The notes beneath the pieces are model-generated. The model did no database searches and was not told the origin of the DNA. It saw nothing but the letters and a program-made list of their open reading frames with translations. Below are positions 1,911 to 3,188 of a stretch of DNA of 64,000 bases, piece after piece. Both the position numbers and the translations under genes were made by a program. The stretch's first letter is position 1. Every line of letters starts with the position of its first letter. Origin of the DNA: Caenimonas koreensis DSM 17982 (GTDB lineage Bacteria > Pseudomonadota > Gammaproteobacteria > Burkholderiales > Burkholderiaceae_C); the NCBI RefSeq assembly GCF_009646335.1, contig NZ_WJBU01000018.1, positions 1 to 64,000 on the forward strand, read 5' to 3'.

Positions 1911-1986
1911 GCGGACGTAGCTCAGTCGAAAGAGCGCGAGGGTGTCACTCTCGAGGTCGTGGATTCAACATCCACCGTTCGCTCCA
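1911..1986 (+). tRNA. non-canonical tRNA-like gene, anticodon GUC (Asp-like), possibly a pseudo-tRNA
   Basis: 76-nt cloverleaf: acceptor GCGGACG/CGTTCGC (one G-U), D arm GCTC..GAGC, anticodon stem CGAGG/TCTCG, loop GTGTCAC with G at position 32, T arm GTGGA-TTCAACA-TCCAC, discriminator T, CCA encoded. Does not match the canonical tRNA-Asp at 2397. Confidence 0.4.
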
Positions 1987-2135
1987 TTTCGGGTGTGCCC
2001 TTGCACCACCGCCTGGCGCGCGCGCCGTGGGAACGGTAAGGGCGGGATGTGCACGGGGTCGCCCCCCATGTGCAGCGAGGGAACCTGGCCGGCTCTTCTG
2101 GCCACTCGCGCTTGGACACAGCCGAAATGGAATAG

Positions 2136-2212
2136 GCCCATGTAGCTCAGTTGGCAGAGCAGCTGCTTTGTAAGCAGCCGGTCGCGCGTTCGAATCGTCG
2201 CCCTGGGCACCA
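2136..2212 (+). tRNA. tRNA-Thr (anticodon UGU), slightly aberrant
   Basis: Anticodon stem GCTGC/GCAGC with loop TTTGTAA; D arm GCTC-AGTTGGCA-GAGC; CCA encoded. The T stem needs a one-nucleotide bulge and the acceptor has a T6-C67 mismatch. Confidence 0.6.
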
Positions 2213-2217
2213 GATAC

Positions 2218-2294
2218 GTCGTGTTCGTCTAGCCGGCTGAGGACACTTGCCTTTCAAGCAGGGAACACGGGTTCGAATCCCGTACATGACGCCA
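2218..2294 (+). tRNA. tRNA-Glu (anticodon UUC)
   Basis: Acceptor GTCGTGT/ACATGAC, D stem GTCT, anticodon loop CTTTCAA, T arm ACGGG-TTCGAAT-CCCGT, discriminator G plus CCA. Resembles E. coli tRNA-Glu. Confidence 0.8.
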
Positions 2295-2396
2295 ATGAAC
2301 CAGAAGTCCCACGTGCTCACGCGCGGGGCGGAAACCGGCCGCAAAGATAGGGCGGCGCCGGAACTCGTCACCGGCCCCATACCTCCACCCATCAAT

Positions 2397-2471
2397 GGTT
2401 CGTTAGCTCAGTGGAAGAGCGTCTCCCTGTCGAGGAGAGGGCCGCGGGTTCGATCCCCGCACGGACCGCCA
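2397..2471 (+). tRNA. tRNA-Asp (anticodon GUC)
   Basis: Acceptor GGTTCGT/ACGGACC, anticodon stem TCTCC/GGAGA with loop CTGTCGA, T arm GCGGG-TTCGATC-CCCGC, G plus CCA. Confidence 0.75.
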
Positions 2472-2478
2472 GATAAAT

Positions 2479-2554
2479 GCCGCAATAGCTCAGATGGTAG
2501 AGCGCTGTGTTGAAAACGCAGGCGTGGGTGGTTCGATCCCATCTTGCGGCACCA
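2479..2554 (+). tRNA. tRNA-Phe (anticodon GAA)
   Basis: Acceptor GCCGCAA/TTGCGGC perfect, anticodon loop TTGAAAA, T arm GGTGG-TTCGATC-CCATC, A plus CCA. Confidence 0.8.
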
Positions 2555-2571
2555 GTCCACATTGCAGATTC

Positions 2572-2648
2572 GCCCCGCTGGCTCAGCGGACAAGAGCACC
2601 GGTTTACGAAGCCGGGGGTCGCACGTTCGAATCGTGCGCGGGGCACCA
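2572..2648 (+). tRNA. tRNA-Arg (anticodon ACG)
   Basis: Acceptor GCCCCGC/GCGGGGC perfect, anticodon stem CCGGT/GCCGG with loop TTACGAA, T arm GCACG-TTCGAAT-CGTGC, A plus CCA. Confidence 0.8.
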
Positions 2649-2658
2649 TTTTTCGCGT

Positions 2659-2734
2659 GGTCGCGTAGCTCAGTCGGAAGAGCACTCGGTCGATAACCGA
2701 GAGGTCGCTGGATCGTTTCCAGCCGTGGCTACCA
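2659..2734 (+). tRNA. non-canonical tRNA-Ile-like (anticodon GAU), possibly non-functional or specialised
   Basis: The cloverleaf folds (anticodon stem CTCGG/CCGAG perfect, loop TCGATAA, T stem GCTGG/CCAGC). But position 33 is C, not U; the T loop is ATCGTTT, not TTCRANT; and the acceptor needs three G-U pairs. Confidence 0.4.
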
Positions 2735-2743
2735 GTTTCGTTT

Positions 2744-2819
2744 CTCCGCGTAGCGCAGTTGGTAGCGCACGTGCTTTGGGAGCATGGGGTCGGGAGTTCG
2801 AGCCTCTCCGCGGAGACCA
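2744..2819 (+). tRNA. tRNA-Pro (anticodon UGG)
   Basis: Acceptor CTCCGCG/CGCGGAG perfect, anticodon loop TTTGGGA, T arm GGGAG-TTCGAGC-CTCTC, A plus CCA. Confidence 0.8.
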
Positions 2820-2827
2820 GCATCAGT

Positions 2828-2903
2828 GGTGCGTGTGGCGCAGTGGCAGCGCTCCGGGTTGTGGTCCCGGTGGTCGTCGGTTCGATCCCGACCACGCACC
2901 CCA
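2828..2903 (+). tRNA. tRNA-His (anticodon GUG) with the extra G at position -1
   Basis: G-1 followed by acceptor GTGCGTG/CACGCAC, anticodon loop TTGTGGT, T arm GTCGG-TTCGATC-CCGAC, discriminator C plus CCA. G-1 and C73 are hallmarks of tRNA-His. Confidence 0.85.
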
Positions 2904-2911
2904 AACCATTT

Positions 2912-2996
2912 GCCCGATTGGCGGAATCGGCAGACGCAGCGGCCTCAAAAGCCGTGGCCTCGCGGCATGCAGGTTCGAGACCTGCATCGGGCACCA
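2912..2996 (+). tRNA. tRNA-Leu (anticodon CAA), class II with long variable arm
   Basis: Acceptor GCCCGAT/ATCGGGC perfect, anticodon loop CTCAAAA, long variable arm, T arm GCAGG-TTCGAGA-CCTGC, A plus CCA. 85 nt. Confidence 0.8.
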
Positions 2997-3004
2997 GCAT
3001 TGAT

Positions 3005-3089
3005 CCCCTCGTGGCGGAATAGGCAGACGCACCGGTCTCAGAAGCCGGGGCCCACGGGCATGTCCGTTCGACTCGGACCGAGGGGACCA
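3005..3089 (+). tRNA. tRNA-Leu (anticodon CAG), class II
   Basis: Acceptor CCCCTCG/CGAGGGG perfect, anticodon loop CTCAGAA, long variable arm, T arm GTCCG-TTCGACT-CGGAC, A plus CCA. 85 nt. Confidence 0.8.
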
Positions 3090-3111
3090 CCACATCGCGC
3101 AGTAGCGACGC

Positions 3112-3188
3112 AGGGGCGTAAACGAGCGGCTTCAGTTACCTGGCTTTGAACCAGGGTATCGCAGGTTCGAATCCTGCCGCCCCCGCCA
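3112..3188 (+). tRNA. tRNA-Gln (anticodon UUG) with an A1-C72 mismatch
   Basis: Gln-type 3-bp D stem AAC/GTT with an 11-nt loop, anticodon stem CCTGG/CCAGG perfect with loop CTTTGAA, T arm GCAGG-TTCGAAT-CCTGC, 3' acceptor CGCCCCC, G plus CCA. The first acceptor pair is A-C. The 3' end overlaps the rtcB ribosome-binding region. Confidence 0.6.

Follow-up and report, generated by a model that had tools for sequence, protein, structure and literature searches.

Are the odd members of a mobile array of transfer RNA (tRNA) genes decaying copies, or variants that are kept and used? The question is raised by the locus at positions 1911–3188 of a 64,000-nucleotide stretch of the genome of Caenimonas koreensis DSM 17982 (hereafter the window), in which 12 tRNA genes, all on the forward strand, were called with ARAGORN and the Rfam tRNA model RF00005. 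The ParC, RtcB and HNH proteins encoded in the window agree exactly with the records of this genome, which belongs to the Comamonadaceae. A preliminary description of this DNA, which relied on folding by hand, had recognised a tRNA array with unusual members and had suggested that these might be degenerate. Both the membership in an array family and the deviations proved to be real. The non-canonical array tRNAs are most probably functional variants, as judged from sequence and predicted fold, since their oddities recur in orthologs of many independent arrays, positions 54 and 58 covary, and base pairing is preserved in 50 of the 53 stem pairs by which the window tRNAs depart from their closest orthologs; the pseudogene reading is not borne out by these comparisons.

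Composition of the array and its relatives

The twelve genes are packed into 1278 bp, with spacers of 5–22 nt in nine of the 11 intervals; the remaining two spacers, of 149 and 102 nt, are both occupied by conserved RNA elements. Long tRNA arrays are recognised by numerous closely spaced tRNA genes that all lie on the same strand, and the locus has this arrangement, its 12 genes lying under the 20–43 usual for such arrays. All 12 genes encode their CCA end and all 12 give a complete cloverleaf. They score 48.0–66.3 bits on the Rfam model (E-values 4e-13 to 4e-8; gathering score 29), on which seven E. coli housekeeping tRNAs reach 57.6–71.1 bits. An error of hand folding can be ruled out, as two independent tools reproduce every deviation that had been described. 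The preliminary description had allowed that high scores and standard folds might dissolve the oddities; the cloverleaves are standard, at 48–66 bits against a threshold of 29, and the deviations at near-invariant positions are nonetheless there.

Related loci, labelled here by L and a number, were collected from plasmid and metagenome DNA. The plasmid search found homologous arrays of 10 to about 40 tRNAs on megaplasmids of Variovorax sp. RA8 and WDL1, V. paradoxus, Methylibium petroleiphilum PM1 and Burkholderia sp. M701. L195–L197 and L199 are four of these plasmid arrays, L195 and L199 being those of Variovorax RA8 and WDL1. A metagenome scan with a profile of the HNH protein encoded beyond the array returned 80 loci, about 60 of which have tRNA genes beside the HNH gene and about 20 of which have arrays of at least nine; the tRNA gene count per locus runs from 0 to more than 20, and many of the 80 also carry the repressor, RtcB and Band-7 genes. 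The locus closest to that of the window is L204, with 86% identity in RtcB and 80% in HNH.

Deviations of tRNA-Ile, tRNA-Thr and tRNA-Gln recur in related arrays

As stand-ins for the housekeeping tRNAs of the host we used the tRNAs of Burkholderiales ribosomal RNA (rRNA) operons together with those of E. coli. The array tRNA-Ile(GAU) had been reported to carry C33, a T loop reading ATCGTTT and three G-U pairs in the acceptor stem, and ARAGORN and Infernal agree on all three. ARAGORN reads the anticodon loop as UCGAUAA, with C33, and the T loop as AUCGUUU, with A54 and U58, and the acceptor stem includes the pairs G1.U72, U3.G70 and G5.U68. The molecule thus forms a cloverleaf and lacks both the U33 and the T54-A58 pair of a canonical elongator tRNA. 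By comparison, the rRNA-operon tRNA-Ile of Burkholderia and Ralstonia (L284, L285) has U33, a T loop of UUCGAAU or UUCAAGU and an acceptor stem made up of Watson-Crick pairs throughout; it is 74% identical to the array tRNA-Ile, and the differences include positions 33, 54, 58 and 72. The same departures are found in array relatives. Of 19 Ile-GAU tRNAs across the related arrays, five have C33 (L195, L254, L258 and L003 are among the loci concerned) and 12 have a T loop without U54; A54:U58 is common (L204, L197, L199, L214 and others), and the 1-72 pair is commonly a wobble or a mismatch. All six stem pairs that differ between the tRNA-Ile of the window and that of L204 remain paired. What we take to be the determinants of E. 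coli IleRS (A73, C4-G69, U12-A23, C29-G41, the GAU anticodon, A37 and A38) can all be read in the array tRNA-Ile, which weighs against its being a pseudogene.

The T arm of tRNA-Thr(UGU) is GCGCG-UUCGAAU-CGUCGC, one base too many. The bulge that had been postulated for its T stem is therefore real, the extra base falling within the 3' side of the stem according to Infernal, which treats it as an insertion, and within an 8-nt loop according to ARAGORN. A T arm of the form GCGCG-UUCGNNN-CGUCGC, including the extra U, is retained in at least eight further arrays. The tRNA also has a U6.C67 mismatch that the earlier description did not mention, and among the orthologs compared this mismatch is found in the window copy only. 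In tRNA-Gln(UUG), the A1.C72 mismatch noted before was flagged by Infernal with Rfam as well as by ARAGORN. In array Gln-UUG tRNAs positions 1 and 72 are mismatched (C.U, U.U or A.C) in 19 of 25 cases and form a G-U wobble in four others, and the four stem pairs that differ between the window copy and its nearest ortholog all still pair. GlnRS must open a weak 1-72 pair, and the pattern seen in array tRNA-Gln fits this. Taken together, the alignments firmly mark the extra U of the tRNA-Thr T stem and the unpaired 1-72 of tRNA-Gln as what appear to be traits of a lineage.

Near-invariant positions vary by isoacceptor and covary across the family

For a view of the whole family, 507 distinct tRNAs were extracted from the related arrays on the basis of ARAGORN calls. 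Position 33 is other than U in 35 of 505 (C in 33 of these), chiefly in Gly-GCC (7/10), His (7/42), Ile-GAU (5/19), Glu (4/24) and Pro-GGG (2/2) tRNAs. Position 54 is other than U in 54 of 495, chiefly in Met-CAU (16/35), Ile-GAU (12/19) and Phe (7/16), and 27 of 59 loci have at least one T loop, of whatever kind, that lacks U54. Twenty family tRNAs have a purine at position 32 and 23 have a pyrimidine at position 37; among Asp-GUC tRNAs U37 or C37 is found in 19 of 26, in the loops CUGUCUA or CUGUCCA. Positions 54 and 58 change together: U:A is found in 441 tRNAs, A:U in 30, A:A in 12 and G:G in 5, and U58 never occurs without A54 (Fisher p ~1e-37, with kinship between the sequences ignored). 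The A54:U58 swap spans at least seven isoacceptor families and several T-stem contexts. At these positions the controls are canonical without exception: 18 distinct tRNAs of E. coli, and such housekeeping tRNAs of Burkholderiales loci as we examined. Of the 53 stem pairs by which the window tRNAs differ from their nearest orthologs, the 50 that still pair include 37 that have changed on both sides. This points to selection for the cloverleaf fold and argues against pseudogenes.

A second set, of 295 distinct phage tRNAs, many of them in arrays, came from 113 IMG/VR viral loci that were fetched via RtcB or HNH homologs. C33 is present in 36 of 294 of these and A54:U58 in 11 of 292. Both would therefore be a trait of mobile-element tRNAs in general and not of this bacterium. 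All these comparisons indicate that the oddities flagged in the window (C33 and A54:U58 in tRNA-Ile, the extra U in tRNA-Thr, the 1-72 mismatch in tRNA-Gln) are inherited, isoacceptor-specific traits and not, by every sign in the alignments, products of decay. That C33 and a swapped 54:58 pair recur in mobile tRNAs seems not to have been reported before in the literature searched; in that literature we found no mention of a tRNA whose T loop has both A54 and U58, a weak negative.

Phage contigs of the IMG/VR collection (L172–L189) also have tRNA arrays that adjoin HNH homologs and show the same non-canonical traits, including Gly-GCC tRNAs with G32 and C38.

A GUC anticodon on a glycine-type body

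The first tRNA of the array, at 1911, had been taken for an Asp-like tRNA with a GUC anticodon and G32, unrelated to the tRNA-Asp at 2397. The anticodon loop is indeed GUGUCAC (G32, U33, GUC, A37, C38), and an identity of 68% between the two tRNAs makes "unrelated" a fair word; the glycine character of the remainder of the molecule had been overlooked. Assignment by whole-sequence identity is uninformative, as the tRNA is about 70% identical to many isoacceptors, and we relied instead on synteny, flanking sequences and profiles with the anticodon loop masked. When aligned to the first tRNA of the four plasmid arrays L195, L196, L197 and L199, its flanks are conserved both upstream (ACTGG...CTCGCAA) and downstream (TTTCGGGTGTGCC). 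The first tRNA of these four arrays is a tRNA-Gly(GCC), with which tRNA 1911 has in common the acceptor stem GCGGACG...CGUYCGC followed by U73. In the array family U73 is found in 10 of 10 GCC tRNAs and G73 in 25 of 26 GUC tRNAs, the sole GUC tRNA with U73 being that at 1911. Once the anticodon loop is masked, the family profile of Gly-GCC gives the body 33.2 bits, that of Gly-UCC 27.0 and that of Asp-GUC 17.1. Its 21 stem pairs are all Watson-Crick or G-U, with C-G at 2-71, and the seven that differ from the nearest ortholog all still pair. These data firmly support a view of tRNA 1911 as the positional ortholog of the leading array tRNA-Gly(GCC), apparently with a shifted anticodon. A single C35-to-U transition turns the GCC anticodon into GUC. 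G32 and C38 would have been inherited from a glycine variant, because the loop GUGCCAC (G32...C38) is present in phage Gly-GCC tRNAs of IMG/VR contigs and whichever bases the first tRNA has at positions 32 and 38, they can pair (A-U, U-A, U.G or G-C).

The identity rules known from E. coli place the determinants read by GlyRS in the acceptor stem and those read by AspRS in the anticodon. By these rules tRNA 1911 has the GUC anticodon and C38 of a tRNA-Asp and lacks G73, G2-C71 and an Asp-type body. From tRNA-Gly it has U73, G1-C72, C2-G71 and G3-C70, with U in place of C at position 35. With a GlyRS-type acceptor and an anticodon of AspRS type, it may be a poor substrate for charging or a substrate of AspRS, or it may mistranslate at a low level by inserting glycine for aspartate. 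Such a molecule resembles the products of anticodon shift, or tRNA remolding, and natural mistranslating tRNAs, in which a point mutation has given a tRNA body of one identity the anticodon of a second; what sets tRNA 1911 apart is its place in a mobile array of redundant tRNAs, next to a genuine tRNA-Asp. Anticodon shift was reportedly described by Saks et al. in 1998 and by Rogers and Griffiths-Jones in 2014, and Streptomyces tRNA-ProA is said to be a natural mistranslating tRNA.

A module carried on a strain-specific island

The order of genes around the array is the same in its relatives: a divergent phage-type repressor, a small open reading frame (ORF), a terminator, a first tRNA that is normally Gly-GCC, a structured RNA, further tRNAs, an RNA ligase (here RtcB) and a 187-amino-acid HNH protein. 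The sequence comparisons thus clearly suggest a common module, and they place 1911–3188 as a 12-gene tRNA operon in what is by all appearances a horizontally spread array family of Burkholderiales megaplasmids and chromosomes and of related phage contigs. An HNH gene together with an XRE-type regulator, as known from tRNA arrays, is found here in the HNH gene at 4478–5041 and the repressor-like ORF at 1040–1423.

A second C. koreensis genome (GCA_044227085.1, L286) is 98.3% identical to the window from about position 6777 rightwards. To the left of this point its syntenic site has nothing that matches the window, be it Band-7, b7a-tRNA (see below), HNH, RtcB, array or repressor, and no tRNA is present there. 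The unit from repressor to Band-7 is therefore a strain-specific island, whose left end lies beyond the start of the window. The array is accordingly horizontally acquired and probably supernumerary: the conspecific genome is without the island and relatives lie on megaplasmids and phage contigs. A prophage origin was considered and rejected. A search of phage DNA gave only RtcB and generic tRNA similarity, and HNH homologs of 72–73% identity do lie at the edge of three IMG/VR proviruses, but the integrase and AntA genes that flank them there are not common to both, and the plasmid and chromosomal array family is the better match.

Figures and coordinates of the individual features are collected in Table 1.

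Table 1 Features of the tRNA array locus and its surroundings in the window
Feature	Position	Strand	Evidence
SEC-C metal-binding-motif small ORF	574–1056	-	Pfam PF02810, E=5e-5
Putative repressor, 127 amino acids, divergent from array	1040–1423	-	PHROG phrog_12107 "transcriptional repressor", E=4e-9
Sigma-70-like promoter, TTGACA-17-TACAGT	1451–1479	+	Consensus match only, 10/12 positions; block conserved in L196
Small conserved ORF, 62 amino acids	1541–1729	+	Start context and 3' end conserved in L195–L197, L199
Strong intrinsic-terminator-like hairpin, 15-pair stem and T tract	1754–1795	+	Near-invariant in five arrays
tRNA with GUC anticodon on tRNA-Gly body (G32, C38, U73)	1911–1986	+	ARAGORN, Rfam, flank and acceptor orthology, masked profile
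Element A, conserved structured RNA of ~150 nt between tRNA 1 and tRNA 2	1983–2138	+	nhmmer, RNAalifold
tRNA-Thr(UGU), extra U in T stem and U6.C67 mismatch	2136–2212	+	ARAGORN, Rfam/Infernal
tRNA-Glu(UUC)	2218–2294	+	ARAGORN, Rfam 57.0 bits
Element B, conserved non-tRNA element after tRNA-Glu, core GGAAACCGGCCGCAAAGAUUGGGCGGCNCCGGAACCCGUCACCGG	2293–2396	+	Alignment, nhmmer
tRNA-Asp(GUC), array type: G73, G2-C71, loop CUGUCGA	2397–2471	+	ARAGORN, Rfam 66.3 bits
tRNA-Phe(GAA)	2479–2554	+	ARAGORN, Rfam
tRNA-Arg(ACG)	2572–2648	+	ARAGORN, Rfam
tRNA-Ile(GAU): C33, A54:U58 T loop, three G-U acceptor pairs	2659–2734	+	ARAGORN, Rfam 56.5 bits
tRNA-Pro(UGG)	2744–2819	+	ARAGORN, Rfam
tRNA-His(GUG), encoded G-1 (base 2828) facing C73	2828–2903	+	ARAGORN
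tRNA-Leu(CAA)	2912–2996	+	ARAGORN, Rfam
tRNA-Leu(CAG), C1-G72 at start	3005–3089	+	ARAGORN, Rfam; stems identical in L214, L235
tRNA-Gln(UUG) with A1.C72	3112–3188	+	ARAGORN, Rfam
RtcB RNA ligase	3212–4414	+	Pfam PF01139, 427.9 bits, full length
Array-associated HNH endonuclease, 187 amino acids	4478–5041	+	Pfam and PHROG HNH families
tRNA-like minihelix, 48 nt (7-bp acceptor stem, T arm, G, CCA), abuts b7a-tRNA	5191–5238	+	Read from sequence
Band-7-associated tRNA-like RNA (b7a-tRNA), tool label "tRNA-Met"	5239–5311	+	ARAGORN, synteny
SPFH/Band-7 protein, last island gene	5552–6694	+	Pfam PF01145

Leader region and embedded RNA elements

Homologs of the putative repressor, 41–68% identical to it, are encoded divergently and directly upstream of the arrays in L195–L197, L199, L204 and about 30 metagenome loci, the identity in the four plasmid arrays being 46–51%. 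The promoter-like site is the only one in 1000–5600, and the 62-amino-acid ORF gave no family match. Promoter-like site, small ORF and terminator, lined up ahead of tRNA 1, look like a leader or attenuator of the array. A sigma-54 promoter of the RtcR type was also considered upstream of tRNA 1, by eye, and rejected, the ACTGG...CTCGCAA motif being wrongly spaced for it.

Element A was found by nhmmer in 40 loci, including loci with no more than 0–2 tRNAs. RNAalifold, run on 36 sequences, gives a consensus of 30 pairs, with compensatory changes in 14. The long stem that closes the element starts from the CCA of tRNA 1 and stops immediately 5' of tRNA 2. Element A could be a processing stem, a small RNA, or a partner of the HNH protein or the repressor. 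Element B gave 40 nhmmer matches in 39 loci (L211 twice). Neither element matches an Rfam family at E<=1. Dead tRNAs in the two gaps (1987–2135 and 2295–2396) were considered and rejected: nothing resembling a tRNA was matched at E<=1 in either, and each holds a conserved element of another kind.

In 12 related loci the terminator hairpin directly adjoins element A, without tRNA 1 between them. Damaged first tRNAs are seen upstream of element A in other loci, with an insertion in the anticodon arm in L240:4143 and L236:7926 and loss of the anticodon arm in L244:9279, and in L229:841 and L242:851 only the 3' part of the first tRNA is left. There are also minimal modules (L237, L228, L210, L208 and L213) that consist of repressor, terminator, element A, tRNA-Arg(ACG) and tRNA-His as the only tRNAs, and HNH; near them lie canonical housekeeping tRNA-Lys and tRNA-Ala genes on the opposite strand.

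Three smaller observations were made on the way. The C1-G72 start of tRNA-Leu(CAG) (CCCCUCG...), which is unusual for a bacterial tRNA-Leu, is kept in L204, L225, L214 and L235. Stretches homologous to the SEC-C ORF lie within or beside the tRNA arrays of L003 (8244–8420) and L063. At 15397–15531 the window has about 130 bp where GCA_044227085.1 has about 1.9 kb (L286 3346–5275) with a gene for a 585-amino-acid protein that gives faint ankyrin-repeat matches, an insertion or deletion unrelated to the array.

RtcB, HNH and the Band-7 unit

The nearest relatives of the RtcB protein, 63–86% identical to it, also adjoin tRNA arrays. The HNH protein is 63–70% identical to the proteins that close the arrays of L195–L197 and L199, 80% to that of L204 and 46% to that of L198, and it is probably a homing-type DNA endonuclease of the sort typical of array ends, with or without an adjacent RtcB. 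Beyond it the order HNH, tRNA-like RNA, Band-7, often with RtcB, is conserved in many loci. The tRNA-like RNA at 5239, labelled tRNA-Met by the tool, has the mismatches C1.A72, A7.A66 and A31.C39 and no proper 3' end, and its orthologs between the HNH and Band-7 genes have differing "anticodons". For these reasons it was rejected as a 13th array member or an integration site and assigned as a b7a-tRNA, a predicted Band-7-associated tRNA-like RNA of the literature. A minihelix-like piece also lies upstream of the tRNA-like RNA in L051, L070, L076, L081 and L069, and an RNase P cut at 5238/5239 would generate the CCA end of the minihelix in the window; Rfam gives only weak YrlA (25.8 bits) and mascRNA matches over 5191–5311.

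A Band-7/b7a-tRNA/RtcB repair system has a tRNA-like RNA beside a Band-7 gene with RtcB adjacent, and 5191–6694 has this composition. The likeness concerns the RNA at 5239–5311 and not the array tRNAs, and a difference is that RtcB here lies upstream, with the HNH gene between. The link to RNA repair that the preliminary description had drawn is real: RtcB follows the array and a Band-7/b7a-tRNA unit lies downstream. That an adjacent nuclease/ligase pair acts on the tRNAs is doubtful, because the nuclease appears to be an array-associated, homing-type DNA endonuclease that is present with or without RtcB.

Possible function and competing explanations

We favor the view that the locus is a mobile array of inherited, fold-constrained variant tRNAs, with an anticodon-shifted tRNA-Gly among them, which serves as a second, inducible tRNA pool. 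As a whole this seems to us reasonably probable; its descriptive part we hold with high confidence, and the adaptive mechanism, escape from toxins or modification enzymes with resealing by RtcB, is a tentative proposal that falls somewhat short of an even chance. Under this proposal the array would supply a pool of tRNAs that differ from the housekeeping ones at the loop, elbow and acceptor-end positions read by tRNA-targeting nucleases and modification enzymes. A back-up pool that is not seen by tRNA nucleases, or by the enzymes that modify U54 and A58, would let translation continue while the housekeeping tRNAs are cut, and RtcB would reseal cleaved tRNAs. Toxins that act at such positions are known: Burkholderia CdiA-CT E479 cuts the T loop beside T54, other toxins of contact-dependent growth inhibition cut the acceptor end of tRNA-Ile(GAU), tRNA-Gln and tRNA-Ala, and an EndoU toxin cleaves the anticodon loop of tRNA-Glu. 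Several points count against this view. No cognate nuclease was identified in the window, we know of no nuclease that is blocked by C33 or A54:U58, and for the anticodon nuclease gamma-toxin of K. lactis a U33C change is without effect on cleavage. U33 and T54-A58 matter for ribosome function and for the structure of the elbow, so that some of the variants may decode poorly. With 12 genes where 20–43 are typical, the size of the array suggests erosion. Across the loci the position of the first tRNA is labile (absent in 12, truncated or with an insertion in about five, Gly-UCC in one), and constraint on tRNA 1911 may therefore be relaxed. Furthermore, ARAGORN reports only sequences that fold, which biases the family set toward good stems, and the family counts include shared ancestry, while a T arm could pass from one array tRNA to another by gene conversion.

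The main rival to the adaptive mechanism is tolerated drift in redundant genes, in which mobile copies would keep the cloverleaf, misfolded RNA being costly or some charging being of use, under relaxed constraint on single conserved nucleotides, and C33, A54:U58, pyrimidine-37 and the like would be neutral or slightly harmful variants that hitch-hike and are spread by gene conversion. Deviations at many positions in many isoacceptors would be expected from drift, and the loss, truncation or interruption of tRNA 1 in many loci, the range of array size among relatives (0 to more than 20 genes, with a short array in the window) and the scores of the window tRNAs (48–66 bits, against 58–71 in E. 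coli) are in keeping with it, as is the Anabaena array, which is dispensable and three of whose tRNAs were undetected (PMC8421152). However, the covariation of 54 and 58 is strict, 32 and 38 are pairable in every first-tRNA variant, and a given isoacceptor shows the same substitution again in distant arrays and phages, patterns that are hard to obtain from unconstrained drift; we consider this explanation unlikely. Outright pseudogenes, non-functional copies in decay, would account for altered near-invariant nucleotides, for the bulge and stem mismatch of tRNA-Thr, and for the mixed identity signals of tRNA 1911 at its labile position. They are very improbable in the face of an encoded CCA and a full cloverleaf in 12 of 12 genes, of the stem pairs maintained, and of a Thr bulge and a Gln 1-72 mismatch that are conserved across many arrays.

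The variants might also be decoys or sensors, absorbing tRNA-targeting toxins or giving fragments that signal damage to RtcB and Band-7, as proposed for Y RNAs and b7a-tRNA. The array does adjoin RtcB and a b7a-tRNA/Band-7 module, and a sponge role has been suggested for the Anabaena array tRNAs (PMC8421152). But a decoy should mimic the target of the toxin, and these tRNAs depart from it in just those parts of the loops, elbow and acceptor end that such enzymes recognise; they cover many amino acids and largely retain the identity elements for their synthetases, and most Anabaena array tRNAs are charged (PMC8421152). We regard decoys or sensors as improbable. A bolder proposal can be put forward as well: C33, A54:U58, pyrimidine-37 and an open 1-72 pair would together define a mobile tRNA set "hardened" by design, carried by phages and by arrays on plasmids and chromosomes so that translation goes on under attack from tRNA-cutting toxins or defence nucleases, with RtcB and Band-7/b7a-tRNA as its repair arm; the GUC/Gly tRNA would be identity-switched, into a new tRNA-Asp or a conditional Gly-for-Asp mistranslator, and the RNAs at 1983–2138 and 2293–2396 would also belong to this system, with functions that have so far gone unrecognised. 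Taken as a package we find it doubtful.

Comparison with known systems and significance

Mobile long tRNA arrays with a repressor, HNH and RtcB are already known as a kind, and the locus of the window, by its gene content, is a further member. The long array of Anabaena PCC 7120 shows horizontal spread, is induced by translational stress with co-regulated rtcB, and has 23 of 26 tRNAs charged (Santamaria-Gomez et al. 2021, PMC8421152). Both arrays consist of supernumerary mobile tRNAs on one strand, with an adjacent HNH gene, rtcB in the neighbourhood or regulon and a few non-functional members; the window array differs in its 12 genes, its location on a chromosomal island, the RtcB gene inside the module, the two RNA elements and the Band-7/b7a-tRNA unit. 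In Mycobacterium, an XRE regulator and an HNH gene are found with about 87% of the arrays of one class, and plasmids, phages and chromosomes have array types in common (Morgado and Vicente 2018, PMC5966550). These belong to another phylum and are likened to the present array by their architecture; deviations at conserved nucleotides were not analysed in that work. The Variovorax megaplasmid arrays, described as redundant tRNA arrays only (Ozturk et al. 2020, PMC7313664), are true homologs (L195 and L199), with repressor, first tRNA, element A, HNH and tRNA orthologs in common. They differ in having 23–27 tRNAs or more, a plasmid location and an RNA ligase of a different family.

For the nucleotide changes themselves there are two precedents. 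Phage tRNAs with mutations in the anticodon loop have been proposed to evade anticodon nucleases, repair ligases being an alternative route (van den Berg et al. 2023, PMC10264068). Like the array tRNAs, these are supernumerary mobile tRNAs whose anticodon loops are unlike those of the host, but in the window the deviations extend to the T loop and the acceptor end, and the carrier is a bacterial chromosome. T loops with A54 and A58 occur in eukaryotic initiator tRNA and AGC tRNA-Ala, the unusual pairs not being seen in bacterial tRNA-Ala (Westhof et al. 2020, PMC7566577). There, as here, the T54-A58 reverse-Hoogsteen pair is replaced naturally in functional tRNAs; the replacement is A:A in the eukaryotic tRNAs and mainly a swapped A54:U58 in the bacterial and phage array tRNAs.

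Arrays of tRNA genes are common on mobile elements and their purpose is poorly understood. The comparisons made here tie the window array to an alignable family of about 500 distinct tRNAs, in which near-invariant positions (U33, T54-A58, purine 37) are altered repeatably, by isoacceptor and with covariation. Two conserved RNAs embedded in the array, which lack an Rfam family and of which element A is structured, are an additional yield. The alignments open predictions as to which nucleotides would give resistance to tRNases of the T loop, the anticodon loop and the acceptor end, whether the modification enzymes TrmA, TruB and m1A58 would be bypassed, and whether a GUC tRNA with a glycine body would be charged with Asp or Gly. 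The recurrence of C33 and of the swapped 54:58 pair in mobile tRNAs is the part most worth pursuing.

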